Shown: positions 3,194 to 44,697 of the stretch, one piece after another
Position numbering within the stretch: position 1 is the first letter of the stretch
Layout: every line of letters begins with the position of its first letter
Source: Cladosporium halotolerans
Taxonomy: Eukaryota
Direction of reading: 5' to 3'
Assembly (NCBI RefSeq): GCF_011745625.1
Contig: NW_027191518.1
Coordinates: 1 to 44,697, forward strand
DNA length: 44,697 bases
Program-made: the position numbers and the translations under genes
The notes under the pieces: model-generated
The model's input: the letters and a program-made list of their open reading frames with translations, nothing else
What the model was told of the DNA's origin: nothing
Databases searched by the model: none

Positions 3194-6100
3194 ATTTGAT
3201 TTGATTTGATATTCCATTATGCCGGTGTAGCTTCCTTACGGGTCCATGCGGGTTGTTACTATGTATGCTATCAAGGAGGAAAACCGTGGCCGCGGCCCGG
3301 GTGAAAACTCCTTCTCTAAATGGATGGCCATTGCCCTGCCGCCAGTGAGTCTACGATACAGTAAGACGTAGCTGCGCGCCTTCGATGCGCTTTAACAATC
3401 GCCATCATCCTCATCCACGTACGTCCCCGGCCTTCGTCCTCGTCGTCTTGGTTTTGCGTCATCCGCTGTCCTCGCCAGAGAGAACTGGGCGAGGATGTCC
3501 CGCCGCAGGAACCACTTGGTCACGCACGTAGGCCTGCCTCAGTTGACAGCAACTTTGTGTAGTCCGTCGTCTTTGCTTCTGCTAGCATCTTTGCCCGTCC
3601 TGTCGTGTGTGCAGGACAAAATAAGATGACGTGTTTTGGAGTCTGTCGCGGCCAGCCGCAGCCGCAATCTGGTTTCGAGTATCCGGGTACGCGCCTCCGA
3701 CATACGTAGTCGTTCAGACCGACGTGCTTGGTCCTGAGTAGCGTTGCCACTGTACTCTCGGCCCTGGTTAAATTCTCCTTCGTCTGTAATCCCCGAGTCC
3801 ACGTCGCACGCGCTGCAACGGATAGGCTGCTATCCTTCGCCGACGCACGTGTTTCCTGCTGGTACCTGGTCCACTTGGCTTTCCAAGCTTCTTCGAGCTC
3901 TCTTCTCGCAGCTGTCGTGTTCCCGCAACGCCTGGTCGGGCTCGATTGCTGTCGCATCGATTCGACTTTTGCTCGAAATTGGTCGGTGTGTCTTGTCGGA
4001 ATGTTGCCTTTCGTCCGGAAGCGGCGCTGAGCCCTTTCATCCGTAGCCTTGCGGGCCTCTTCCACAGCCCGGTCGCCCGGACAGTCCTCCGTTCTACGAA
4101 CATGGTTGACCGCCAGCATTTCGAGGTGGAGGTCCAAGGGTGCGAGGCTCGCCTCATGTTCCAGCACCCGGACATTTGTCGTCTTGTATGCGCCTGTGAT
4201 GGTTCTGAGGCACCTGTTCTGTACTGTCTGTAGTGGATAGATCAGTCTGTTTCGGTTGGCTCGTTCATCTCCAGTGAACACCACACCGGGCAGCCATAGG
4301 AGAGTACTGGACGGACGACAGCAGCGCAGATCTGCCTTGCCTTGGCGAACGTAGCTCCCCACGTGCTCTTGGTCAATCGGGTAATTGACGCCATGTGTGC
4401 CGCCACCTTTGCTGCCGTCAGGTTGACGTGAGGGCCCCATTTGAGCTTCGAGTCTAGGTGGATTCCGAGGATTCTCATCACTGGCACTGGCCCGTCTTGG
4501 AATTTGGGCATCCGTACGGTCGCCTGCATGTTGAACTTCTTGGGGCGGCGAGTGAAATGCATCAGCTGGTACTTCTCGGGCGCGAAGGTCGCGCCGTGTG
4601 TGCGTGCCCAGGCCATACACTTCTCGTTGGCGCTTTCCAGATCTCGACAGTTCGCTTCCATGCTTCTGCTGAACGTGAGTATGTTGGTGTAGTCCACGAA
4701 GCCGATCGCGGTCGTTGCTCTGGCGTTGAGCTGCGGGAGGAGGGTGGAAGCGAAGAAGAGAAAGAGGATCGGTGATAGTGTTGAGCCCTGGAGAATACCC
4801 GATGTTGTGGATCGGACCCTGTCTTCGTATGTGCCTAGCGTAAGGGTCGTTGTCCGACCGGTCAAGAAGGAGCGGATATAGCTGGCTACCCACTGCGGTA
4901 TCCCCGCGTCCCGGATATTGTGAACCAGCCTCTCGTGAGAAACATTCTCGAACGCTCCAGAGATGTCCAGGCTGAGCATGCTCGCCACCAAAGTGGGATC
5001 GTTCGCCCATACCGTCTGGATCTGCTCGGTGAGCATTTCTAGCGCAGTGATGGTCGATTGTCCCTGCCGTGCACCCATTTGTGTGACTGGCAGCAAGTTG
5101 TGTTCTTCCGCCAACACTGACATCCGGCGGGCAACGATCTTCTCGAGCACCTTCCCGAGCGTGTTGAGCAGAGCTATAGGTCTGTATGCTTTCGCGACAT
5201 CATATGAGGGCTTCTGTGGCTTCCTCAAGTCTACCGTTCTGGAATGGCGGAAGGGCGTTGGGTGGTAAGATCTCTGCAAGCAGTCTTGGAATAGCTCGGC
5301 TAAAGGTTCCGCGAGTATATCTCTGCACTCGCGCAGGAAGCGGTTGGGTGTACTGTCCGGCCCTGGGGCCTTGTCTGGCGCGATTGTCTTCAGCATGTCT
5401 CTGATCTCGTCCGCCGTGACCTCCTGGCTCATCGAGAGCTCGGGCGGGTAACTTTAGCCCTCGATGTCGGTGAGATCTGCCCTCACCGGTGGCGGAAAGA
5501 AGTGTTCTGCGAGCACGTTGGCTTTTGCTTCGTTTGAGCTGTGGTACGTGCCATCTTTGTCTTTTATCGGTGGGAACTGAGGTGGCGGCGGCGGCTCTTG
5601 GGCTGTTGTTCTTGCCCACTTTGTCAACCGCCACATATTTGCCGGATCACGCATGATATCGGCTACGGTTCGTCTCCAACCCAGCGTGTTGTCCCTCTTG
5701 ATCTGCTGTTTCTTCTCGTTTACCGCCTGGCGGTAGATGACGTAGGCCTCATGAGTGCCATGAGCCACCCACTTCCGTCGGGCTCGTCGAGCCCGCCTGA
5801 CGCTCTCTGTACATTCGTTGCTCCAACCAGTACGGATCCAGCGGGAAGGTCTGGCCAGGGGTATGATGTCGCGGATGGTTCCCTGGATGATCGTCTGTAG
5901 TTTGGCCACCCTCTTATCCAGGGCCTCCAGATCGTCTGTTTGTCGCTGGTCGGAGCAACTTGAGTCGCCCAGGCACTCCTGGTTTAGCTCTCCTAATCGA
6001 TGCTCTAGGCGCTTGCGCACCTACCCCCAGTCCGCCTTGCGCCACTGAGGTTGTGCTGTGGGCTCTGCTTGCTGTGCAACTGATGCCTCGATCGACGTGA

Positions 6101-6467
6101 TCATCGGTATATGGTCGGAGTCCGAGTCTAATTCCTCGCACGGTCGGCATTGTAGCACTTGCTCTATCATCCCTGGCGTCGCAAAGGACAGGTCCAGCGT
6201 GCTCATGCTGCTGCCTGATCCCCACGTCACGGTACCTTGCGGCAAGATCAGCTGTAGGTTGCTCTGGGCTGTGGTTTCAATCAGGGTGTCTGCTAGTGTG
6301 TGTTGAGTAGGTAGCATAGTTCCGCCTCATAGCGGATGATGTAGGTTGAAATCTCTGACCAGAAGGTGTTCACCTGGGCAGTCGAGCGCTAGTGGGAGCA
6401 GCTGCAGGGTGGCAAGGTTACGGCTGGTCAGGAGCTTTGGGGGACGGTTGTAGCAATTATGGATGTG
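3194..6467 (-). mobile_element. Tad1-clade LINE copy A, 5'-truncated and degenerate (partial AP endonuclease, RT, C-terminal cysteine motif, (ATCAA)n tail)
   Basis: APE fragment (DFNLHHPL, TLDLSF, DSDH) at 6021-6467. RT at 4242-5432 (KAPGPD, YRPIALL, LDISGAF, QGSTLSP, FVDY with the second Asp mutated). C-terminal CGCG..QTPKHVILFC. TTTGA repeats at 3194-3210 form the 3' tail. Confidence 0.92.
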
Positions 6468-12767: not shown

Positions 12768-15700
12768 CGCCGGCGGAAAGCCAGCGGAGGGGGTCCGCCG
12801 GCCCCCCGCCGCGACGCGTCCGCCGCGCACCCCCGGCTCTCACAACACTGTGAACATAGTCCCAGACACCCAACAGCTCATTGACACAGCAGCAGCAGCA
12901 ATCCTTGAAACCTTAGACACGCCCAACGGCTCGTCGTCGTCCATCCGGACATCCCTACTTCGCGCCTTCCTCCGCGAAGCCAAAGAAACGCTCACCACCC
13001 TACAACAGGAACCATTACCACACCCCACCACGAACGCAATCCTCCGAGAGGTCCATGCAGTGCACGAAGCCGTCAAAGGCCTAGCTACACTGCCAGCCTC
13101 GCCGCCCACGTCCCCTCGCCCAACATGGGCTCAAATCGCGACCGCGCTTGCGCCGACACCGTCGAGATCCCCTACCCCCCTAACTCAGGGCCCCGAACTC
13201 ACCATCCGCATTCCTGACCCTGAGTAAAGAAAGAACGCACAAAGCCTGCCAAAAGAGGGTATTATAAAGAAGGTACAACAAGAACGGCCCGATGGGAAAG
13301 AGGTGGTAGCTGTTAGGAAACTTCCGAGTGGAGACGTCCGCCTGTTCCTGGCCGGCGAGCGGACCAAAACAGCCCTACTGCAGGATAAATCTTGGACCAC
13401 CTACCTCGGAAAATCATGCAGCATAGCAGAGAGCGTCTACAAGGTTCTGGTGCATAGTGTTCGGGTGGACTCGATTGACCCGAAACGAGCAGAAGACGTC
13501 GCGAAGCTGCAAGAGGAGAACCAAGCGCTCCACAATGGCCTCCGGATTACGAGGCTCTCCTGGCTCAGTCGCGGACATGCCCCGAGTAAAACGCGTTCTT
13601 CCCTCATAGTGGGTGTTGCGACGGAGCAAATGGCCAACTGGATTATCCAACGCGGACTCGTCAGCAACTTTGCCCTTCACCTCGCTGAGTACTACAGCCC
13701 GGAGTCGAGACTGGTACGACGCTTCAAATGTCAAGCCTACGGGCACGTCGCGCCAGTCTGTCGCGGGACAGAAGCCTGCGGGCATTGTGCGGGAAAGCAT
13801 AACACGCAAGACTGCACTACAAAGACCCAGCTCAAGTGCGCCAACTGTGGAAAGAAACACGCCGCGTGGAATCACGAATGTAGCATTCGAAGAGCAGCCA
13901 AGCCAAAAGTATGCAAGCCAGATACACGGCGCCGGCCCGCCTTCCCCAACGGTCAGACGCGATTGTCAACGTTGAGGAGGAGAGTGGTTGGACCTTGATC
14001 GAGTCAAAGAAACGCAAGCTGTCACCAGCTGCGACTGATCGGAAACGAGCCGGACCAGGCCGTCCTCCAGCAGTCCAGACACCCAACGCTCGATCTCGAC
14101 GTACCCTATCGTTTGCGAATGTTTTCCAGCCTCAAACTAGGACATTCCAGCCTCAAACTAGGACATTCAGTAGCACTTCACAGGATGCAAGATCAGGTGC
14201 CCTTGTAGACAAACCAGCAGACACAGATATGGAGGACGATGCTTGATACAACGCGAACGCTCAACATCATACAGTACAACGTGAACAAAAGCAGAAACCG
14301 CGTGATGACGTCCATGTTCAAGCCTCTGAGTCCTGAGAAGCATCACATCCTGGCCGTGTAAGAGCCATGGCGCAACCCGCAGATGCCGACGACGAGTCGG
14401 GCCCCGAACTACCATTTGATCTACCCTTTGAGCAAAGAGACGCGAGTGCGCTTCTATGTCAGCAAAGCGGTCGACCATAACAAGTGGGAGACTACAGAAC
14501 ACTCGCCGGACCTTGTGACACTCACGATCCACATAGGCGGCAGAATGCTACACATCCACAATTGCTATAATCCCCCTCCAAAGCTCCTTACCAGCCGTAA
14601 TCTTGCCACCTTACAGCTACTCCCGCAAGCGCTTGAGCGACCAGGTGAACATCTACTGGTCGGAGACTTCAATTTACGTCACCCGTCATGGGGCAGGACG
14701 TTGCTGCCAACGCAACACACTTTGGCGGACGACCTGATTGAGGCTGTGGTACAAAGCAATATGGAGCTCATCCTGCCGCAAGGTACGGTCACGTGGAGAT
14801 CGAACAATAGCATGAGCACACTAGACCTATCCTTCGCTTCCCCAGGGATAGCAGAGCAGGTGTTGCAATGCCAGCCGTGTGAGGAACTAGATTCTGACTC
14901 CGACCATATACCGATCATCACATCGATCGAGACACCAATTCCACAGCAAGCGGAGCGTCCAGCGCAACCCCAATGGCGTAAGGCGGGCTGGGAGAAGGTG
15001 CGTGGGCACTTAAAGCACCGGCTAGGAAGGCTTAACCAGGACGACTTGCTCGATCCAGGCGAACGCGACAGACGACAAGCAAACGAACATGGAAGCCCTT
15101 GACAAGAAGGTGGTCCTACTGCAGACGATTTTCCAAGACACTATCCGCGACACGATCCCCCTAGTGAAACCTTCCCGCTGGATTCGTACAGGCTGGAGCG
15201 ACGAATGTACAGAAAGCGTCAAGCGGGCCCGACGAGCCCGGCGGACGTGGATGGCTCATGGCAGTCAGGAGGCCTAGGTCAGCTATCGCCAAGCGGTAAA
15301 CGAGAAGAAACGACAGATCAAACGAGAAAGCACGCTGGGCTGGCGCGAGACCGTCCCGGATATCATTCGTGACCCAGCGGAAATGTGGCGGCTGACGAAG
15401 TGGGCACGAACAACAGCCCAAGAGCCGCCGCCGCCACCTCAGTTCCCGGCGATGAAAGACAGAGACGGCAGGCTTCATGGCTCGAGTGAGGAGAAGGCGG
15501 ACGTCCTTGCGGACCACTTCTTCCCACCACCAGTGAACGCAGACCTAGCCGACCTTGCGGGTCACGTATACCCGCCCGAGCTCTCGATGAGCCAGGAAGT
15601 CACTGCAAACGAGATCCTAAGCATCATGAAGACCATCGCGCCAGACAAAGCTCCAAGGCCGGACAAAATACCCAATCGCTTCCTTCACGAGTGCAGAGAC

Positions 15701-17455
15701 GTCCTCGCCGAGCCTCTGTCCAAGCTGTTCCAAAGCTGCCTGTAAAAATCCTATCACCCAATGCCATTCCGCCACTCTAAAACAGTGGTACTGAGAAAAC
15801 CACAAAAGGCGGCATACGATGTAGCAAAAGCATACAGGCCTATAGCACTGCTCAACACGCTCGGGAAGGTGCTCGAGAAGATCGTTGCCCGGCGTATGTC
15901 AGCGTTGGCCGAGGAACACAACCTTCTGCCTACCACGCAGATGGGCGCACGGCCAGGACGCTCGACCGGAACAGCGCTGGAAATGTCACGGAGCAGATCC
16001 CGACGGTCTGGGCAAACGACCGCACATTGGTGACGAGTATGCTGAGTCTGGACATCTCCGGCGCGTTCGACAATGTCTCGCAGACAGACTGATCAACAAC
16101 ATCCGAGACGCGAGGCTGCCGCAGTGGGTGGCAGACTACATCCGGTCCTTTTTGACCGATCAAACGACGACTCTCATGCTGGGCACCTACGAGGACAGGG
16201 TCCGTCCGACCACGTCGGGCATCCCCCAGGGCTCGACCCTGTCACCGATACTCTTCCTCTTCTTCGCCTCTACTCTCTTCCCACAACTAAACGCCGGGGC
16301 AACGACCGCGATCGGTTTCGTGGATGACACCAACATTCTCACGTTCAGCAGATCCACTGAAGCGAACTGTCGAGTTTTGGAAAGAGCAAACGAAAAGTGT
16401 ATGGCCTGGGCACGCACACACGGTGCGACATTCGCGCCGGAGAAGTACCAGCTGATGCACTTCACCCGCCGCTCGACAAAGTTCAACATGCAGGCGACCG
16501 TACGGATACCCAAGTTCCAAGACGGTCCAGTGCCAGTGATGAGAATCCTCGGCATCCACCTAGACTCGAAGCTCAAATGGGGCCCCCACGTAAACCTGAC
16601 TGCAGCAAAGTCCGCATCGCACATGGCATCAATCACCCGGATGACCAAGAGCACGTTGGGAGCCACATTCACCAAGGCCAGACAGGTCTACGCTGCCGTG
16701 GTCCGTCCAGTACTTTCTTACGGATGCCCTGTATGGTATTCCCTTGGTGACGAACGAGCCAACCTTAACCGACTGATCTATCCATTGCAGACAGTGCAGA
16801 ACAAGTGCCTCAGAACCATTACAGGCGCATACAAAACGACGAATGTCCAAGTGCTAGAACACGAAGCCAGCATTCCACCTCTGGATTTCCACCTCGAAAT
16901 GCTGGCGATCAACCATGTCCAAAGAGCAGAAGATTCCACAGGCAATCGGGCTGTGGAAGAAGCCTGTAAGGCTATCGACCGACGGGCCCAGCGCCGCTTT
17001 CGAACCAAAGGCAACATCCTAGAAGACACATGGACCGATTTCGAACAAGGACTAAATTGATACAACGGCGATCATGCCTGGCGGGGCGTGATGGGGGCAA
17101 AACAGCTACGAAGACAGAGCTCGAGGAGACTTGGAGAGCCAGGTGGACCGAGTACCAGCAGCAAACGTGTGCGGTGGTGAATGACAGCAAACTTTTGGTT
17201 GCAGCGTGTGCGACATGGACTCGAGGATTGCGGACGAAGGAGAACCTCACAAGGCCGAAAGTACAGTTGCAACACTGCTACGAACCGAACACATGCAGGA
17301 ACGATTACCTGTTTCAACGGCGCGTGCCCGGATACTCAAAGCCAGACTGCGACTGCGGCTGGCCGCGACAGACACCGAAACTCATCATTCTGTTCTGTCC
17401 TGCACACACGACAGGTCTGGCATAGATGCTAAGGGAGGCGAAGACGACCGACTAG
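12768..17455 (+). mobile_element. Tad1-clade LINE copy B (ORF1 with zinc knuckles; ORF2 APE-RT-cysteine motif), degenerate, same family as copy A
   Basis: ORF1 VRKLPSGDV, CQAYGHVAPVC, CGHCAGKH, CANCGKKH. ORF2 IIQYNV, GDFNLRH, RT with FVDD. Many stops and frameshifts. Protein closely similar to copy A. Confidence 0.93.
14123..14168 (+). repeat. 21-bp in-frame tandem duplication (FQPQTRT twice) in LINE ORF1
   Basis: TTCCAGCCTCAAACTAGGACA occurs twice in tandem. Confidence 0.9.
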
Positions 17456-17459
17456 ACAT

Positions 17460-20809: not shown

Positions 20810-21746
20810 TTGTGTTGCATCCGTCTATTGTGGCTCTTGCGGCGCTGTAACACCATGTCTGCGACCATATACCTGTCCCCTAGTGCTCAGCCCGTCTCTT
20901 CTGCCGTGTCCCTCTACTCTCTGGGCGTATGGCAGTGCTTTAAAGTGATCCCACGTGTTGTTCTTGTCTCCCACTAGGATCTTTGACGTGGCAATGTGTT
21001 TGCGAGCGTCTTTCGTCGTTCACGGCAGCTTCGATGTCTCCATCGGCGTTCAGCGGTATGAGAACGATGCTCCACTCCTGCTGGGCTTCGAATTACTAGC
21101 ATGAGAGCTCTAGCGCGAATCTCCTCGGGCTTTGTCATGTGGTGAAGGGTGACTAATCCTTCACCAATGGTTCTGGGGGCGACAGTGGGCGAGGCTGTCT
21201 GTGTATCTGTAGTATTGTGTGGCACCGATGAGTAGCGTGCCGATGCCCGGTGTTCGATTCGCGTAGAGATGATCCCGTTCTGTTCGAAGGCCTGCCGGCG
21301 TGGGACGCCGCAGACGTTGGCAGGTGCTTTGATGGACCTGCTCCCGGTCCATCCGTGGCTGTGTATTGTGACTGTTGCTGAAAAGTGTCTGTGCTCAGTC
21401 GCCGCACCCGTACTGCTGGACTCTGACCGAGGCACTGTACTGCTGCTAAAGCCGAAAGACGTGTTGTTTCGTGGCTTGCTCTTGATGTTCTGCATGTGTT
21501 GTCCACTGCGTCGACGAGAGGTCCTCTGCAGATCCCGTGTCCACGGGGAGAGTCGCGCGGTGACCTGCACAGGGCATCAGGGTCTTATGTGGACGTGATT
21601 GCGGCCGCGTTACTTGGTGTTTCCTTGCTCTTTCGCACCCGCTGCGTGCTCCTTATCCAAGTTGTTGAGGTCTCCTGGCTCTGTCAACTGTTGCCAGTGA
21701 CAGGTTCGTAGCCGGCACCACGTACAGGTGGACCTCATCGCCGGCC
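20810..21746 (-). mobile_element. 5' fragment of a ribozyme-headed LINE-like element (family X, copy 1)
   Basis: Starts with an HDV-like fold. Patchy similarity to 29770-30340 over about 550 bp (GAGCAAGCCACGAA, CAACGTCTGCG, AACAGAACGG, CAGACAGCCTCG). No RT remains, so LINE identity is inferred. Confidence 0.6.
21667..21746 (-). ncRNA. HDV-like self-cleaving ribozyme (class I, copy 1)
   Basis: P1 GGCCGGC/GCCGGCU; P2 GAGGUC-C/G-A-GACCUC; P3 ACC/GGU; L3 UGUACGU; P1.1 GU/AC; P4 CUGUCA-CUG GCAA CAG-U-UGACAG; J4/2 GCCAG. Confidence 0.85.
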
Positions 21747-21785
21747 GTCACCAGTCGTACTACAGCCCTTAGATAGGTCATTACC

Positions 21786-24700
21786 GGGAAAACTTTCTTT
21801 TCGGCTTTGTCACAGACAAGGTCATTATTTATACCAATCCAGAGCACAGACTAAGCGCATTGCGTATATAATAACGTGATTTCCAACGCCTCGGCTGGCG
21901 GGAATGTTATCCCCCAGTAGAGGCGGCGGAGGGACCCCTTTGAACGACATTTCAGGGTCCGAAGCGTGCCGGGGAGCCTCCGGGCGGGTCAGAAGCCTCG
22001 CAGATTTCGGATTCTGCGAAACGGACTTCAGAGAACTGACCATGAACATTGAAATCTCTGAACTCGACTGTGTGATGGTGGAGGATGAAGAGGGCGTTGG
22101 GGGAAACCGGAGCGCGAAGTCTGGGGAAGCTGACGACCTCGCCGACGCTGCTGCGGGGTTGCCTACACCGGAGACGAGGCAGGGGACGGTGGCGGAAGAG
22201 GTACCAGGTAGTGACGAGGGCTGAGGGTAAGCCGAAGCAAGCAGCTAAGGCTGCTGTGACGGCGCTCAAGCCTGGTGTCGTCCAACCGAGCCAACAGGCC
22301 GAGGCGTCGAAGAAACGTAGGGCAGAGGACCCTTTGACGAGGTCCAGCGATGGAAGCTCCCTGGCGGACCAGATTGAAGGTGTCAAATCCCTGGTCCTCC
22401 GTTTACTCGAACAAGGGAAGAACGAGATCTGGAGGAGGAAGAGAGACTGGAGATCTGCGATCTGAGGAAGGAAGTCAAAGACCTCAAAAAAGAAGTGAGG
22501 GAGCTCAAGAAGCTGCTTCAGGCGAACAACGTCCAAGCACAAGGTCCCACTTATGCGGCGGTCGCTAGGGCGAACATGCCGATGTTAACGGTCAGGACCA
22601 CGTTTCCGCGCGATAAAACGGGTGACGTGCAACCGCAACAGAGGCTGCGTGTTGAGGATGATAAATGCTCCATCACGGTCAACACCTCCAGGGTCAAAGA
22701 CGAGAAGCCGGACTTTGTGGCAGTAAAGGCCAAGCTCTAACAGGCAATCGATGGTAGCGGCGCTGTGGGAAACGCAAAGATCACTTGCCTTCGCCAGCTT
22801 CCAGGCGAAAGAATAAACGTGGTCTTCGCTTCTGCGGCAGATGCTAAACGGGCTCGGAACCACATTGGGTGGCTTGGGACTGCGATGGCCAACGCGAGAG
22901 TGCTCAGCGAGCCATGGTACCATATCAAGTGTGACATGGTTGCTAAGAGGGCCATGTTGGACGACCAAGCACCAGATGCGAGTTTGCCATAAACAATGCC
23001 AAGGAGGGGTTGGATTTCACGGCAATGAAGGCTAGCTGGCTCAGTAAGCTAGACCCGCGTAAAGCGAATGGATCTATGGTACTCTGGCTGAAGAGCAAGG
23101 CGGCCGCCGACTGGCTCTTGCAGACGGGCCAGGCTTCGTTTGGGGGAGGTGCTTATGGTGCCTGCTGTTCGAAATATCTCCAGGACAACTCGTCTAAGGT
23201 CTGCTACAATTGTAATGCTTATGGACACACGCAGACCAACTGCGGACGCGCCACTCGTTGTGGCAACTGTTCCGGTAGCCACCAAACACGAGACTGCACT
23301 GGTACTGCTTCGCTGAAGTGTCCTGCGTGTACGGGAGCTCACACAATCAAAGATTGGTGCTGTAAACACCATCCGGCCCACAGGAAATATCTCGCTCAGC
23401 TATCGAAATAACCAGAGGCCTCACAGTCGATGAAGTCTGCTGCAGGAGTGCCATGCGACAAAGATGCGGAAATGGACCGTCCCCAGCGGTGCAAATGATC
23501 AACGAACTCAAAATACTGCAGTACAACATCGGCAGGCGCAAGCAAGTTCAGTGGAGCACGTTCAATGATCCAAATTTGCAGAGTTTCGCGGTTTTGGCTA
23601 TCCTAGAGCCACACCTCTGGGAAGACCCCGGGATAGGAGAAGCGAGGACGCACCAGCATGATCGGTAGTACGCAATGACGCCATCGAAACACAGAACAGG
23701 AGTTCGTACATGGCATTCGTTTCGAGCTATGCTGTATTTCAGCATCAGCACGCATGCCAGACAGATTCCGGTTGACAGCTTCGACATTGTCGCAGCGACT
23801 ATAAGGCTCAGAGAAAAGACTATCCTAATCATCGCGATCTATGACCCAGGAGTGGAGCGAGACGCGACTGATCGGGATGCGGCTCTTCAGGTGAAGCGGA
23901 TCAAGTCCGGGATCTGGTAGACACAACCAAAGGCGAAATAGGTGACAGCCTACACATCATCCTGTTGAAGGGTCTCAACCGTCATGATATCCTATGGGGC
24001 GGCATTGCAGTGGCAGCTCACTGTAAACGTGACGAAGGCATTCGGATAGTGAATTTTGCACAGGAATACGGTCTACAGTCGCTCCTCACACCGGGTACTA
24101 TAACGTGGGAACACCCAGCCAGCATCGCTCGTTCCACAGTCGATGTGATCATGGCATCAGAAGGCATGGTAGAGTCTCAGACGTGCTGTAAGGTGTATGA
24201 CACAGACCATGGCTCAGACCACAGGCCGATAGAGATGAGATTCGACCTTCCGGTGGATCAACCCAAGGACCGCAGACGGAGACTACAGTTCCAGAAGGCT
24301 GATGGAAGGTCATTGGGCGCGCAGTTGAGGCACGCTTACCACTCTCAGATATCCCGAGTGAAGTCACGCAAGATGAACTCGAGGAGTATGCGACGCATTC
24401 CATGCGAGTGGTCACGGAAGATATGCATGCAAGAGTTCTCAGGTCCAGACCTTCGCCCTACGTGAAAAGATGGTGGACACCAGAATTGACACAAACTACG
24501 GAGCAATATGACTGCTGCCAGAAACGCCATCACAGCTTTACGGCGCAGGGGTGAATCACCTGATGAAGCTCAACAACAGTTTTGGCTGGCGAAACGTCGC
24601 TTCTGTCGCGAGATGGAGGCTCAGAAAAAGAACCACTGGCATGCCTTCCTTGACGACCAGAACAATATCTGGAAGGCAAACTCGATCTCGAAGTTGATGT

Positions 24701-26289: not shown

Positions 26290-29200
26290 TCACTTGTTCC
26301 CAACCGTGCTGATGATCTGCTGTATCTTTTCCACGATCTTCTCAATTCTATACGGCTTGCTGATCACGTCATCCTGATGATCATTAGCTACAGTCGATCT
26401 CTTGTGGCAGTGAAATCGCTCTTACCATTCCTGCCGACTTCCTGTCAAAAACACAAGATAGAAAGGTCAGTGTCTGCTGGTCTGAAATCTCAAAAACAAA
26501 GCGAGCACTTACATCTCTGCTTGTTGCTCGCTTCTGACGTTAGCAGTGACCCCGAGGATAGGAATATGCTCTATCTGTCCCTGCCTTTCCAGCTCGCGTA
26601 TAGTTTTCGTAGCGGTATTCCCATCCATTATTGGCATTTCCATATCCATAAGGCAGATGTCAAAAGCATGTTTGTCACTGGAGAGCTTCGAAGCATTCAT
26701 CACAGTCGTGACAGCCTCTTTGCCATTGTTCGCCACCGTTACGTCGTAGCCTTTGTTCTCTAGCTTCCGACACACCAGTTTTTGGTTGATCACATTATCC
26801 TCAACGAGGAGAACATGAGCCCGCACCCTTGGCTTGGCTGGTAGAGTCTTCAGCGTCGTCCCCTGATAGGAGGAGCCTTCACCGTTTTCTGCTGAGGACA
26901 ATGACGCCATATCGACTCTCAGGTCCTGGCTACTCTTCCGTTCGTTCTGGGATGCGATAGAACCTTTCGTATCCTGGTTCATGCTCTCTTCTCGAACCTT
27001 TGAAGCGATCTGAGCGGTGCGCTTATACCTGTCATCTTCCTGATGATTGGTATTACGAATCATGTCCTCCGTTTTCGCTACTGGTGGATTGTCCAAGCTC
27101 CCCGGGAAGATGCTGTTGTCTATGTTTTTCGGCGCGAAATTGCCAAGCTCATTGATCTGGCCTCTTAAAGGGGCGTTGTCCAGTTCCTGCTCCTCTACCC
27201 GGCTTTCATAGCTCTGTGGCTGCCCGGTACGCTTCACTTTGAAGAAGAAGCCAAATGTACTGCCACAGCCAGCTTTAGAGCTGACACCGACCTCGCCGCC
27301 ATGGACATGACATAGCTTCCGACTGATGTTAAGGCCCAAGCCCGAGCCCCCATAAATCTCGACAGTCTTCGGCGTAGCCTGCCTACGTATGTGCTTAGGA
27401 CAAAATATACGTATCAGCACCAGGCTTCATATCCGACTTACTGCATCGTTTAGGTCAGTCCCAAGCAACACACAGGAATTAAGGAGCACCTCGCAAAACC
27501 TACCCTAAATCGCTCGAACAGCCGCTGCTGGCCTTCATCACTGATTCCGATGCCCGTGTCTTTCACTGCAACCATAATGTAAGCCGCCGCACCAGTGCCC
27601 CAGTCTCGCGTGTTGGTAGCATCCACGCGATAAGCATGATCTTCAGGACTAAAAAATACGACGTTGGGCGGGTAGCTTGTTGGACGTTGCACACTGGCAC
27701 CCACCGAAACTACCACCTTCTTCTGACCTTGGGCTCTCGCGGTGAACTTAATCGCGTTCGAGACCAGGTTTATTAATACCTGCGAAATACGGACCATATC
27801 TGCCTTGAGGGGAAGGGTAAAAATTAGCAAATTCTCGAGGCAAGGTATGATAGCAGGCATCAATAGCCATTCTCCCGTTTTGGAACTGCTGCGCATTCAG
27901 TTGGCAATAAGCAGGCCACTGTTGTGGCCCACTCATGTCTGCCAATCTATACCTCATATGTCTCGGCTCGGAAAAGACAACGAAGGAACACAGGAAATAT
28001 AAAAAGTGAAAAAGGATGTGGAGACGAGCAGGCTTACCAGGACCCAAGATACATCCAAATCGAGGTAGGATTGATCTATTCTGTAGCCAAACTCGACTTC
28101 TTGCCGACGAAACTCAGGTTGAAAGAGTTTGAGAGAGTTTGCGATTTGACGATCCGGCAAGCAGGCCTTCGGGCTCAAAGACAGCATTGAAGCGTCCAGT
28201 TTTGAGAATGACAGCACGTCATCAACAATATTTCGCTGGTGCTTTGCAATTAAATAGCACATCAGCCTCGATATCAGGTCCACGCGGTACCTGCCGACCT
28301 TACCTGGATGCAGACGTTGATAGTCTCGACAGACTCTTTGATGCTGGCAATGTCGACATTGCTCAGATCACTGATGGCATCCTCGATATCTTCGGAGCAG
28401 TGCAGCAGAGCCGATAATGGATTGCGGATTTCGTGTGATATCATATCAATGAACCTCTCCTGCTGCTCTTTGCGTTCACGAGCGTCTTTGGCGGCCTTTC
28501 GCTCCGCAAGCTCCGCACTCTTCTCGGAAGTAATGTCGACAACGCTACAGATGAAGCCTCCATATTCGCGCAAGCTCACATGCTGAAGATTGTCATCGCC
28601 AAGTGGTGTTAGGAAAAGCAATCGCCATGGATGTTGATCACCGAGCGCCCTGAACTCTGTCCGAAGCTGTTTTTGCGAGAAAAAGGCATCATGGTATATA
28701 TCCATGACTCGATTGTAGTCATCAGGATGGATACTCTGTGGCCACGATTTGAACTCCTGGTTCTCGCCGCGATGGGTAGTCAACTGGTAAAATTGCTGGT
28801 TGACAAAGACTGCTTGCGCTTTATGATCGAGAATTGCCAGGCCCGTCGGTAGCATTTCAGCAAAACGGTGAAAGAATGGATGCTCGTCGAATGAGACACC
28901 GTTGAGTGCCCGTCCCAGCTGGCTCATGTCACATTCGGTCTCTGGGTTCTTCTCTGGCATTTTCATTTCCCAAAGATCTGGTCGTGAAGGATGCTTTTCG
29001 TTTCCGCCCCGGCCATAGAGGTCGGGCTCTGGTATCATCTGTACGAGTGAGCCATCCGCACCGTGCTCTCTCGGATCTGTGTCGTCGAACAGGGGGCTGA
29101 TGAGTGTTGTATAGCGGCCTACTTCATAGCCGGAGTGATCCCGAAGAAAAGCGCGACTGTTGACCCTTTTGGGAACGCCGCCATGTAAAGAGGCAGACAA

Positions 29201-29575
29201 TGCGTTAAAGCCGTCCGCGGACAGCTTGCCACGTTGCTCTTGACCTTGGTCGTGAATTCCACTGGCCTTTCTCCATTCGCGATTCTGCAGAAGAATCATC
29301 TCCTCACCCCAAAAGACGCAGGCAGGATAAGCAAAAGACGCAACGGCTTTGGTATAGGCCTTTAGCGCCTCCGGCCACGTCCCCGGCTTCTCAAAGGGGG
29401 AATGCTCCCACGCCCGCTCATTCCCGGGTAGCAAACCCTTCAATTCACTTTCAGCACGCTCATGCAGTGATTGCTCAGCTTTAGGGTTCATGATTGGTGG
29501 TCGTTGATGACTTCTTCTTGCTTGATTGGTTTGCACTGACCTTGCGCCCGTCCGTCGAAATACTCGAGGACTCAC
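26290..29575 (-). CDS. Hybrid sensor histidine kinase (PAS-HisKA-HATPase_c-REC), multi-exon; start uncertain (in-frame ATG at 29491 or an upstream exon)
   Basis: PAS IHPDD; H-box MISHEIRNPLS; N-box NLVSNAIKFT; G1 DTGIGI; YGGSGLGLNIS; receiver VLLVEDN..DICLMDMEMPIMDG..TAN..DDVISKPY. Five GT-AG introns. Confidence 0.9.
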
Positions 29576-29769
29576 ATGACGGGGTTAGCTGACATTTTGA
29601 CAAAGTGGTGTTGGGAAAGCAATCCGCCGGATTGATGCTATGAATCGTCATCTTCCCGGCCCGGGCCGTATCACATGACCCGGGCATTCTCTATCCGACA
29701 ACAAAGTGACCCTGGCGAACATATTCCAACCACTGTCGAGAAATGAAGAAGCTTCTGAGGACAAGGCTC

Positions 29770-29850
29770 GGCCGGCGACGAGGCCCACGTGTACGTGGTG
29801 CTGACTACGAACCTGTCACTGCTCAGCAGCTGGGGGAGCCAAGAGGCCTC
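29770..29850 (+). ncRNA. HDV-like ribozyme (class I, copy 2; partly decayed)
   Basis: P1 GGCCGGC/GCUGACU; P2 GAGGCC-C/G-A-GGCCUC; P3 ACG/GGU; L3 UGUACGU; P1.1 GU/AC; J4/2 GCCAA. Confidence 0.8.
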
Positions 29851-30340
29851 AAGAGAAAAGCAGGAAGACAAGGCGAGCACAAAAGAGCAAGGAAAGCGCA
29901 AACATACCACCACCAGAACCATCCGCTTGGAATCTGCAACAGACTCTGTAGGCCATTACGTCTTCCTCCGCGTCGAACGAATTGTAGAGCCACTGTTGCA
30001 GTCACGGCGGATACAGATTGCATAATTCCACGAGCAAGCCACGAACACGATGCGCAGATCCAAGTCGACGATAACGGCCGCAGCCTGGTCTCGATATAGC
30101 AACCCGGACACGATTACCGAGCCCAGGCAACCCAAAATACCACAGTCAACGTCCAGAATAAAGTCCTCGATGGATCAACCGCCCGCCCATCACACGTACC
30201 CGACAACGTCTGCGACGTCCCGCCTCAACAAGACCTCAAACAGAACGGCATCATCTCCTGCACGAATTGGACACCAGACACACAACACTAGAGTCACCAG
30301 ACAGCCTCGTCCACTGTCGGCTCCCTCCAAGCCCCACAGG
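29770..30340 (+). mobile_element. 5' fragment of family X, copy 2
   Basis: Homologous to 21170-21746 (minus), including an aligned ATG-GAY start and QRLRRP codons with a synonymous change. Confidence 0.6.
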
Positions 30341-30692
30341 GCGTTCGTGCTGGATGTCTTGTCCGGTGTGACTCTTTTCATCTCATGAGCCTATGTATTG
30401 GTCTTCCTGCGAGAGCCGGTGGGCTCGTCGCGTTCTTGTGCATTTCCTGCGCCTTCTTCCGACTCTTGCTCATTTGGGATGTCGAGTCGACCTTGTCGAT
30501 GCTGGTGGCGGGGGTTCGTGTTGCCTGCAGGCGCGGTGCGCGCGCAGGCCTTGTCGTGTCGTGCAGAGTTTCCTGGCGGCTGGACGGCGAAGTGGGCGGC
30601 CATGTCGACCATGTCGGGCGTTCTCGATGGGTTGGGGTCATCGAGTGATGACTGGGTTGCGAGACTGCCACGTGGACTCATCGCTCTTCTGT

Positions 30693-30765
30693 AGCGCACT
30701 TCATTTCACTGCAAAGCAGCTACTCACACCAGACACCACGTGAAGGTGTGCGCTCTGCCTCCGGC
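30693..30765 (-). ncRNA. HDV-like ribozyme (class II, E-loop P4) with the catalytic C replaced by U
   Basis: P1 GCCGGA/UCUGGU; P2 AGCGCAC/GUGCGCU; P3 ACC/GGU; L3 UUCACGU; P4 AGUA-G-CUGC UUU GCAG-U-GAA; J4/2 A-U-GAA. Confidence 0.8.
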
Positions 30766-31270
30766 GCTGTTGGTGTTACAGCCCTGGTGTGCAAAGTGGT
30801 TCTCTCCAATTGGGTTGCCGCGGCGAATTGAGCACTTTTGGAAATGGCCTTATGAAAATATCACTACGTGAGAAAGTATCTTTGCACAGATGGCAGGAGT
30901 ACGGTCGGTCGCCAGTGTCTGCTCTTAGCCATCATACTACATGGGAAAATTCCCTCCCAAAGTCATCCACTGGCTCACGTTTCAACAGATGGCGCTTCAT
31001 ATGCTTCGCGTGGAGGTATGCCTTGTTGCATTGCGAACAAGGGTACTTCCCGTCGGCATGCTTTCAAAGAATCACGTTTTCGCTGATTTGTCCATAGCCA
31101 GAGACAGGCGTGTTAGGTCGGCCTGGCACGCTTGGAAGAAGACTACGACGGTCATGCGAACCGACCACGCGTGTAGGTGCCTCCTTGTTCTGCATGAAAG
31201 GTGACCGGTGGACCTTTCGAGGGTTGTCAGGCTGAACAAGCTGCCCATAGATCCGCCAACTCCGCAAGAG
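30766..31270 (-). pseudogene. Fragment of a C2H2 zinc-finger transcription factor gene (RfeC-like), frameshifted, intron retained
   Basis: RVVGSHDRRSLLPSVPGRP..DGKYPCSQCNKAYLHAKHMKRHLLK, an intron, then HTGDRPYSCHLCKDTFSRSDI, a frameshift, and HFQKCSIRRGNP. Confidence 0.8.
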
Positions 31271-31286
31271 GCATTGAGCGGATTGT

Positions 31287-32720
31287 CAGAGATGTCAATA
31301 TGTGAATCGTTATTCAGTAATTCGATTCAGTAATTCAGTTCAGTCACTACTGTATCATTCCTTCTTGGATCATGCCATAGATTCAGTTTAGATTCAGTAG
31401 ATTCAGTAAACTCGACCCACCCCAGGCGTATATTGGAGCACAACACAGCATGGCTCAGAACGTAGAGCTAGATGCGACTCCGCATTGCGGGCCTTGCGGG
31501 CAAGCCTTCAAATTCGGTAGTGCTCACACACCATCGCCGTGGTCCAAGGCACTACCCCACGGTTTCGCTGGCATGAGCCCTGATACAGACCGCGAAACCT
31601 CTAGCGAGGCTTCCCATACGGAATTTGATCTTCTTGATGTGCACTCCAACCACAACGGGATACCTCTTTCTAGCGAGTCCGGCTCTCAGCCTGATGATGA
31701 CCTGATACATCCAGCTAAGAGACCGAGGAAAGGGCGGGCTCCGCGAGCGGTCGCCCTGTGGTCGCACGCACGCAGCCCTCTGCCGCATGAGCCGTCGCGT
31801 GCACCTTCGGGTCATCGATGGTTTTACTGCAGTCGTTGCGATTGGGAAAGCATCACATCCAACGCGCGGAGGCATGTGGCGAGTTATGGCATACACATCG
31901 GACAAGACGATTCTCTTCAGAAGCAGGCTGCAGCCAGATCCATCAAGGCGTCCTTCAGTGCCCAAGAGCTTGCGGCGCAGGCGAGGAGCGACGAGAAGAC
32001 GAGGAACACTCTCCGCAACGCTTGCAACAAGGGCAGTTTCCGCAATGCGGTCGCACGCTTTGTCACCAGCCAGAGCCTAGCTCACAATGTTGTCGAGTCA
32101 AGGGAGTTTCATGCTATGTGCTTAACCCTCAATTGTGAGGCTGGACACGCTCTGGTTCGGTCCCACTCGTCTATACCTCGTCGCATCGCATCTAATTTCA
32201 AATACCAACGCTCCTTGGTAAAGGACGCTTTGCATGAAGCTCAAAGCGCGATTCAGCTCTGCACAGACAGCTGGACGTCCGGCCTCACCAATCAGCGTGA
32301 GTTTCAGGCAATCAACGCACAGTGGGGAGACGCGAATGGCCAGATACAACGCGCGCTGTTAGCCTTGCCAGAGCTTACGCAAGGTCACGCTGGAGAGGAC
32401 GTAGCACCTCATATCATTGACGTGTTACAAAGGGTCAACATCAAGCACAAACTTGGTTTCATCACTGCCGACAATGCTACAGCCAATGACACACTTTGCC
32501 GGGCAATAGAGCAGCATCTGGCCTCGGATGGAATTACTTGGGATGCGGCAACCCAGAGGTTGCGATGCCTCGGTCACACCCTCAACATAGCTACGCAAGC
32601 TCTCATGTTTGCGAAATATAGCGAAGCTGTTGATGTAGCCGCACAACGTACGGCCAACACTCGGTCTGTAGAAGAGTCCATTGCTTCACTATCGCAGACC
32701 CAGAAGGAAGGCTGGCGACG
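31287..32720 (+). mobile_element. hAT (Restless-like) transposon 1, left end plus 5' half of the transposase
   Basis: CAGAGATG start followed by ATTCAG subterminal repeats. BED finger FYCSRC..RRH; LCTDSWTS; TADNATAND; LRCLGHTLN. Truncated after EGWRR. Confidence 0.85.
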
Positions 32721-32759: not shown

Positions 32760-33263
32760 AAGGGACTTCTTTTCGCTTTTGTCACAGACAGGGTCATCTT
32801 TCATATCAATCGGAAGCACAGCTCAAACACAGTGCGGCCACACCAACGTGATCTCCAACGCCTCGCTGGCGGGAATGTCATCCCCCAGTAAAGGCGGCGG
32901 AGGTACGCCCTCGAGCGACTTTTCACGGTCTGAAGCGCCCGGGGAGAGCTTCCAGCCAATCGGGAGCCTCGCTAATCGAAAGCTGTTCACGCCGGGTTTC
33001 AGACGTGAACCCCCAGAGAGCCAGGAATACCAGCACGTCGCCAGAACGTGCCCGGCAAGCCCGAAAAAGCGGAAAGCAGAGTCAAACATCGCTGTGAGCA
33101 TTGAAGAGGATGCACTATGGCAGGCGATCGAGAAAGCCGTGGCGAGGGCGTTGCAGGCCTTGGTAGGGCCCGACCTCGCCTCTGGCTCATTAGGGAATGT
33201 AAGATCTCTGCGAAGCGGGATCAAAGATATCAAAAACAGTATTGACAAGACGCAAATGTAAGT
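32760..33263 (+). mobile_element. 5' end and ORF1 start of a LINE related to copy D, in frame with the hAT1 ORF
   Basis: 32765-32945 is similar to 21792-21975 (TTTGTCACAGACA.GGTCAT; MSSPSKGGGGTP versus MLSPSRGGGGTP). Confidence 0.8.
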
Positions 33264-38148: not shown

Positions 38149-38354
38149 TACACCATGGGGCTTGTCCGCGGGTCCCAAGGTCGCATGTGAGCGAGGGTTA
38201 CACAAATTGCTTGCTGCGTTCGAAAACATTTGGGATTCGCGAAGCAAGAGAGCGCCGTGGTGGAAAGATCACGCCGTTCGAGCAATATATACGCTGACAC
38301 TCGTCGCTTTTACAGCCGTTGCTTCACGCCATCGTCTTCCTAGTCCAGCTCATC

Positions 38355-44437: not shown

Positions 44438-44509
44438 GCCGGACGAGAGCGCACACCTTCACGTGATGTCTGGTGTGAGTAGCTGCTATGCAGTGAAACC
44501 AAGTGCGCT
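44438..44509 (+). ncRNA. HDV-like ribozyme (class II, E-loop P4) with the catalytic C retained
   Basis: P1 GCCGGAC/GUCUGGU; P2 AGCGCAC/GUGCGCU; P3 ACC/GAU (one mismatch); L3 UUCACGU; P4 AGUA-G-CUGC UAU GCAG-U-GAA; J4/2 A-C-CAA. Confidence 0.85.
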
Positions 44510-44510
44510 A

Positions 44511-44697
44511 GAAGCTTTCCCCACCTCAAGCACGTCCACACCTCAGGCACGCTTGACGCGGCACCAACGCGTCCTCTTCTCTACGTGATTTCTCAACAAC
44601 CGCAACTCAATGGACATAGCGCTTGCAGAATTAGGGTCTTCTGATGGTCTGAAGATATCTGACGTCGCAAGAAAACACGGGCTTACCAGATCCGCGC
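44511..44697 (+). mobile_element. Left end of a pogo-like transposon related to 36366-38148, running off the window
   Basis: TA-GAAGCTTTCCCCAC is identical to the pogo 2 terminus. ATG at 44610, MDIALAEL..DVARKHGLTRS. Confidence 0.8.

Follow-up and report, generated by a model that had tools for sequence, protein, structure and literature searches.

We suggest that positions 30693–30765 of the analysed DNA (the window, 44,697 nucleotides of Cladosporium halotolerans) are a decayed HDV-type ribozyme that heads a dispersed non-coding repeat, and that the 5′ end of this repeat was set by self-cleavage of its RNA before reverse transcription in trans; we give this reading a probability of roughly 60%. 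The family would best be read as a non-autonomous, ribozyme-headed retroelement, as R2, L1Tc/NARTc and RTE-type elements are. According to the predicted folds, the ~1-kb stretch 29769–30765 has an inward-reading HDV-like ribozyme at either end, on opposite strands, and this paired layout is unusual. The window is transposon-rich, filamentous-ascomycete DNA with several LINE-type elements (endonuclease, reverse transcriptase and RNase H domains), pogo/Fot1-type DDE_1 transposases and hAT-like open reading frames, and a hybrid histidine-kinase gene lies at 26.5–29.6 kb on the minus strand.

The ribozyme at 30693..30765 (copy A of what we call class II) is read on the minus strand from G 30765 to T 30693 and is degenerate; it is supported by pair counts, a descriptor and our own model R1. 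Copy B is located at 44438..44509 on the plus strand, with 7/7 P1 pairs, CC in J4/2 and one C.A mismatch in P3. The initial annotation had described the A site as an inverted near-copy of 44438–44509 with an HDV-type fold and an intact P3, and our comparison confirmed both points. The inverted repeats 30692–30756 and 44446–44510 are 94% complementary, identity over the aligned 73-column block is 96%, copy A keeps an intact P3 (ACC/GGT), and standard pairs fill 44 of the 46 pair cells of the two copies, compared with 20–50% when the partners are slid by 1–3 columns.

The class II fold has a 7-bp P1 starting with G.U, a J1/2 segment, a 6–7-bp P2 that closes the 3′ end, a 3-bp P3 with a 7-nt L3, a single P1.1 pair and a 5-bp P4 hairpin. 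In copy A, on the minus strand throughout, P1 is formed by 30759–30765 and 30728–30734, followed by J1/2 at 30755–30758, P2 at 30748–30754 and 30693–30699, and P3 at 30745–30747 and 30735–30737, with L3 at 30738–30744. The position equivalent to G38 is 30727, the P4 strands are 30716–30720 and 30708–30712, flanked by AGUA (30721–30724) and GAA (30705–30707), and the catalytic-C position is 30703 (U), with 30702 (G) as its neighbour. The seventh P1 pair of copy A is G.G and its J1/2 has one added base. A C is found between P2 and P3 in 4/4 copies of both ribozyme classes described here; in class II this C could alternatively form a seventh P2 pair.

Copy B, the two class I copies (see below) and most other genomic copies carry the J4/2 catalytic cytosine, which is missing in copy A. 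We compared contigs of the same organism (X1) and of three relatives (X6–X8) over 29000–32000. The other genomic copies in X1 have CC on the ribozyme strand at 30703/30702 (3 contigs, ~294–299 of a depth of 397), and CC was likewise seen in contigs of the relatives X6–X8. The T at 30703 on the minus strand, opposed to C in copy B, had been noted before and was found again, and the statement that C75U abolishes cleavage is correct for the HDV ribozyme itself, where C75U is reported to block cleavage (PMC4227795). The proposal that copy A was later inactivated by a C-to-T change holds in one part, as the catalytic C is gone, and fails in another, as this was no lone change: CC has become UG, the seventh P1 pair is lost and J1/2 has gained a base. 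Judged from these letters, copy A is probably inactive, since CC-to-UG is combined with a weakened P1 and C75U blocks HDV. RIP was rejected as the source of CC-to-UG, because the change includes a transversion and would therefore not be a RIP signature. With its natural CC-to-UG change, copy A offers a negative control that need not be constructed.

By structure alone, the class II fold is no better than chance. When the window was dinucleotide-shuffled, a structure-only HDV descriptor still detected ~11.8 sites per shuffle on average, with at least one site in 60/60 shuffles, and the nested minimum free energy z-scores of the two class II copies are ordinary (−0.25 and +1.0). When the AGUA...GAA feature of P4 was added, the descriptor, which was composed after the sequences had been seen, matched copies A and B only and none of 300 shuffles. 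We take these AGUA/GAA flanks of the class II P4 to be loop-E-like, on the loop-E consensus. No Rfam family reached its gathering score, the covariance models HDV_ribozyme, CPEB3, HDV-F-prausnitzii and drz-Agam included. The HDV-type models had no match to copy A even at E≤10, copy B gave a weak match to HDV-F-prausnitzii (18.5 bits, E 0.57, gathering score 44), and class I had no Rfam match at E≤10. A 22-nt ribozyme core searched in metagenomes gave 0 matches. The above-chance standing of the fold comes from the AGUA/GAA feature of P4, from the covariation with class I and from the position of the block as the conserved tip of a repeat.

The second ribozyme class (class I) was detected at the far end of the unit. 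A degenerate class I HDV-like candidate lies at 29770..29850 on the plus strand, opposite to copy A, and reads inward from the far unit end; an intact-looking candidate lies at 21667..21746 on the minus strand, with P1 7/7, P2 6/6, P3 3/3, P1.1 2/2 and P4 6/6 paired. Across the two copies 45/48 pair cells are paired. P1 is GGCCGGC/GCCGGCU, P1.1 consists of U-A and G-C, compared with the C-G pair of class II, and the loop-E-like motif is absent. Both copies start 1 nt inside the repeat boundary (29769 and 21747, respectively). The earlier reading missed this inward-facing ribozyme on the opposite strand, which a simple retroelement with a 5′ ribozyme would not predict.

The two classes recognised one another. 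With a model built on class II only, the best other match in 88.5 kb was the class I site 21746→21668 (minus strand, 15.1 bits, E 0.12); with the class I model, the best other matches were both class II copies, at E 0.082 and E 0.24, their first G being aligned. Comparing the class I copy at 21 kb with copy B, we found pairs changed on both sides in 3/7 of P1 and 5/6 of P2; over these 13 pairs the two-sided changes number 8 and the one-sided changes 0. The two class I copies show one further compensatory change in P2, from U-A to C-G. The P3 pairs of the classes are identical except for the C.A mismatch of copy B. The unpaired core is common to both as well: L3 reads U..ACGU in classes I and II, and CCA(A/G)G stands before the 3′ strand of P2 in copy B and in the class I copies. 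The covariation is drawn from the comparison of class I with class II, as each class has two sequences (4 in all).

At 21 kb only the class I half is present, with its end at ~21155–21178, equivalent to ~30327–30340 at the A locus. The 21-kb copy could be a 5′-truncated one that keeps the common end 29769/21747, this same end being the start of the class I ribozyme.

The ribozyme block of class II and ~420 nt behind it are multi-copy in X1, and the upstream flanks differ from the first G (G1, 30765) outward. The depth in X1 rises from 67.5 in single-copy DNA to 273–573 over 30313–30817 and to ~1000 within the ribozyme, and the relatives show a similar rise. The body copies are ~84–90% identical in X1 and the relatives, with several indels. 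On the upstream side, 2 X1 contigs have loose ends at 30765 and 3 have them at 30756, their letters differing past these points, and an X1 joint coincides exactly with 30765; at 30756 there is also a single loose end in X7 and another in X8. In X8 the letters past 30756 supply the rest of P1, after which they diverge from both A and B and from one another. The flanks of copies A and B, upstream and downstream, align no better than shuffles (112/300, 106/300 and 243/300 shuffles score at least as high as the real sequences). An apparent A/B homology reaching 20 nt upstream of G1 (to 30786, relaxed blastn) consisted of one 6-mer and a gap, was insignificant against shuffles and was rejected. The element 5′ end is placed at the predicted cleavage site because a multi-copy block with differing upstream flanks starts at G1.

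The DNA upstream of copy A gave the same boundary within one base. An RfeC-like C2H2 zinc-finger pseudogene fragment lies at 30766..31237 on the minus strand, covering about residues 170–300 of proteins of 420–527 residues. A single intron interrupts the fragment, along with an in-frame stop and a frameshift of 1 nt near 30849–30852, where the paralogues have no extra base. Reading from 31237 to 30766, it aligns with proteins named RfeC (P0084, P0102) and with other C2H2 factors. Protein P0020 aligns to 30822→30766 with a stretch that closes in RRNTNS, and the last codon ends one base before G1 at 30765, while the RfeC-like relatives continue with NRLS.SQQDGPIGLAGL, a conserved stretch that is missing from the window. 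The breakpoint falls at G1 within one codon, since homology runs through ...NTNS and the last codon ends at 30766. This junction was also found in a relative, where piece 30 of X8 spans 30487–30915 with 2 differences.

These results bear out most of what the initial annotation had proposed for the boundary. It stated that the RfeC-like frame runs up to the first G, and the protein homology does extend to 30766, one base before 30765; it stated that the A/B similarity stops there, in agreement with our shuffled comparisons. The proposed coincidence of the insertion boundary with the predicted cleavage site is upheld by the repeat boundary and the host-gene breakpoint, both at G1. Of the checks it suggested, the alignment of paralogues put the breakpoint at G1 within one codon, and the 5′ boundaries of genomic copies do pile up at G1, with loose ends at 30765 and 30756 (the latter completing P1 in X8) and the joint at 30765.

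Beyond either candidate 3′ end of the element we found no remainder of the RfeC-like gene, and no target-site duplication of at least 8 nt was found; in view of these two results a clean insertion is only presumed. Two candidates for further RfeC-like sequence in the window were rejected. A remnant upstream of copy B (CxxCxDxF, by eye) is a 9-residue match at E 5.9, with DNA no better than shuffles, and the Zn2Cys6 gene at ~10.3–12.2 kb, considered as the intact paralogue, belongs to another family. As a separate observation, the second zinc-finger exon (30812–30910) is multi-copy in X6, with a depth of ~229 against 17.5 for single-copy DNA and 4 contigs with loose ends at 30812. This part of the RfeC-like family may have undergone amplification in X6, or a repeat may carry it there.

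Copy B is followed directly by a pogo/Fot1-type transposon, inserted at TA 44509–44510 immediately after P2 of the ribozyme. Its left end occupies 44511..44697 on the plus strand (HTH_psq/DDE_1 families), with a homologous end inverted at 38150→37961, and the window stops 188 nt into it. The body of B is thus hidden by the transposon directly behind it.

At the A locus the unit continues behind the ribozyme with a multi-copy non-coding body at 30340..30692 (minus strand; multi-copy according to the contigs, no Pfam match for its open reading frames) and with a remainder at 29769..30339 (minus strand), which is ~62% alike to 21175–21747. The homology between 21175–21747 and 30324–29769 stops abruptly in both members at one shared point, 29769/21747. 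If the unit is 29769–30765, GCT stands outside both of its ends (29766–29768 and 30766–30768), which may be a 3-nt duplication or chance (~1 in 64). Contigs of the three relatives X6–X8 break off at 29741–29747 and start again at 29550 or lower, whereas the contig of the organism itself is continuous; the gap 29551–29744 in X6–X8 points to a structural difference that would adjoin the class I end of the unit.

No link of the element to a reverse-transcriptase gene was found. The element body has no open reading frame with a Pfam match, window-wide DNA comparisons revealed no resemblance between it and the LINE 3′ ends of the window, and neither inferred 3′ end bears an A-rich or repeat tail. 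The neighbouring LINE has its ORF1 start at 22042, and we considered whether the body might be its 5′ UTR. Relatives of this ORF1 came from metagenomes (10 loci, of which 7 are distinct). One search for a ribozyme upstream of ORF1 gave 0 matches in the 10 loci, another gave 1 poor match in the 15,397 nt of upstream DNA available from 6 loci, and scans of 7/10 loci with the class I and class II models gave nothing better than E 0.48. A blastn match to locus L007 (E 0.15) had no HDV-type fold and was rejected. The 5′ UTR idea was dropped because no ribozyme lies upstream of ORF1 in the metagenome relatives and because the class I ribozyme reads away from the LINE.

Other features of the LINEs were recorded in passing. 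Two inverted LINE copies, 3556–6467 and 14551–17458, are 79% identical across 2.9 kb. ORF1 genes are found at 22042–23495 (+) and 12919–13860 (+); the former is split into several frames and is 69–79% identical, piecewise, to the 493-aa protein P0121, and the latter is a distant relative (~24% identity). A 208-nt direct repeat, 78% alike, is present at 21795–22001, where it ends ~40 nt before LINE ORF1 begins, and at 32767–32972, within the 3′ part of a long hAT-like open reading frame.

We propose the following course of events for the ribozyme-headed retroelement. The element would have no promoter of its own at the tip and would be transcribed from upstream DNA, here possibly from the RfeC-like pseudogene, which has the same orientation. 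The ribozyme would cut just 5′ of its first G and so fix the RNA's 5′ end, and a reverse transcriptase acting in trans would copy the RNA to new sites; the window has several LINEs with endonuclease, reverse transcriptase and RNase H domains. Full-length copies would hence all start at that G, beside unrelated DNA. Copy A would then have lost the catalytic C (CC to UG) and one P1 pair and should have stopped cutting. The mechanism offered in the initial annotation, in which the 5′ end was created by self-cleavage before reverse transcription, is plausible and would fit a known paradigm. The opposite-strand ribozyme at the far end would be accounted for either by two ribozyme-headed elements lying tail to tail or by one unit processed on both strands.

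The stronger of these two versions, still unlikely in our estimation, is a single double-ended element 29769–30765, of which both strands would be transcribed, each transcript having a ribozyme at its 5′ end by which it would be trimmed (class II for the minus strand, class I for the plus strand). Both ends of the unit fall within 0–1 nt of the first G of an inward HDV-like fold, the termini pair as a panhandle in the minimum free energy fold, and other class II copies seem to run into sequence resembling the class I tail (X1 at 30359, X7 at 30361, X8 at 30339; a weak likeness seen by eye). In its most novel form the unit would be a DNA copy of a unit-length monomer of a small rolling-circle RNA (viroid-, delta- or retrozyme-like), in whose circle the two cleavage sites would face each other head to head at a distance of 1 nt. 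Ribozyme pairs of opposite polarity are carried by HDV and by viroid-like circular RNAs. The whole-unit fold, however, is neither rod-like nor unusually stable (z −1.2; 3/20 shuffles as good), no tandem or permuted junction was seen among the joints listed, and the upstream flank of B differs from the class I end. The halves are also unlike, with 6–15 copies at 84–90% identity for one and 2 copies at ~62% for the other. Should the paired opposite-strand layout recur, it would point to both-strand processing.

The unlikeness of the halves is what the other version would explain. Here a younger class II retroelement (~425 nt, 30765→~30340) and an older class I retroelement (~580 nt, 29770→~30340) would lie tail to tail, with 21155–21746 as a lone class I element; we consider this less probable than the double-ended element. 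Neither age nor copy number is the same in the two halves, and the 21-kb class I half ends at the equivalent of ~30327–30340, near the drop in multi-copy depth at 30339–30359. Yet the juxtaposition seems, from the contig loose ends, to recur in other copies, which would need a site preference; the internal junction has no common 3′ tail or palindrome, only inverted repeats of 11–17 nt; and an A-rich or repeat tail is lacking at both inferred 3′ ends.

More doubtful than either version is the proposal that the ~1-kb unit, both ends of which would be set by the cleavage sites of its inward-reading ribozymes, is a genomic copy of a unit-length RNA that was processed, and perhaps circularised and copied, in both polarities, which would make it a fungal, delta-type counterpart of retrozymes or viroid-like RNAs in place of an ordinary retroelement with a 5′ ribozyme. 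It is very improbable that the HDV-like fold is fortuitous and that the 73-nt blocks represent either the terminal inverted repeats, now diverged, of a non-autonomous DNA transposon or just the conserved end of a repeat: the unit ends are inverted and ~58% alike over ~48 nt (aligned by eye), both are flanked by the GCT described above, neither class is recognised by Rfam and structure-only matches are common, but decaying inverted repeats are disfavoured by 8 double and 0 single changes in P1 and P2 that are compensatory within each end's own helices, the conserved part is the unpaired core, the loop-E-like feature of P4 and the extra C match a published, cleaving fungal class (PMC5640933), and the host gene does not resume beyond the other end. 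The non-autonomous retroelement headed by a ribozyme is the reading that we carry into the comparison with known systems.

Li and Breaker (2017, PMC5640933) reported 230 fungal HDV variants from 26 species, two of which cleaved in vitro; in these variants an E-loop partly replaces P4 and an extra nucleotide, usually C, stands between P2 and P3. Class II belongs to this fungal variant with a loop-E-like P4 or is close to it. The likeness extends to the filamentous ascomycete host, the HDV double pseudoknot, the loop-E-like P4 of class II, the C between P2 and P3 and the flanking genes that vary by copy. The cleavage-site pair may differ: C-G is described as typical there, the first P1 pair here is G.U in 4/4 copies and C-G is the P1.1 pair of class II; class I, having no loop-E-like motif, is unlike the published variants (PMC5640933). 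The context given for the variants is 'widely variable gene associations', and the string 'transpos' occurs 0 times in the paper's text (PMC5640933). Our literature search, made mostly outside subscription journals, found no link between fungal HDV ribozymes and transposons.

Resemblance to HDV and viroid-like circular RNAs lies in the one self-cleaving ribozyme, here predicted, on each strand of a short non-coding unit (PMC6765202). Unlike those RNAs, the unit here is chromosomal DNA in several copies, and we found neither a rod-like fold nor, among the joints listed, a tandem form. In Trypanosoma cruzi, L1TcRz is reported to lie in the first 77 nt of L1Tc/NARTc (PMC3185411, PMC3383444). As in L1Tc/NARTc, a short 5′-terminal HDV-like ribozyme is carried by many copies, including non-autonomous ones, and is more conserved than the body (PMC3185411, PMC3383444). 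The present family differs in kingdom and in ribozyme sequence, and no autonomous partner was found here.

The arrangement is also that reported for R2 (PMC3774820): the element opens with the ribozyme, cleavage (predicted here) falls at the exact 5′ host junction, and processing takes place from a co-transcript with the upstream host gene, as we infer for the RfeC-like fragment. R2 codes for its own protein and occupies a single 28S rDNA site (PMC3774820), unlike the element described here, which is dispersed and non-coding over at least 1 kb. Taken together, the family is a new fungal example of a known pattern, and the double-ended ribozyme layout is its unusual part. It puts one family of fungal HDV-type ribozymes precisely at the 5′ terminus of a repeat that is dispersed in the genome and thereby offers a testable role for fungal HDV ribozymes, because the same arrangement explains the HDV-like ribozymes of animal and trypanosome retrotransposons.
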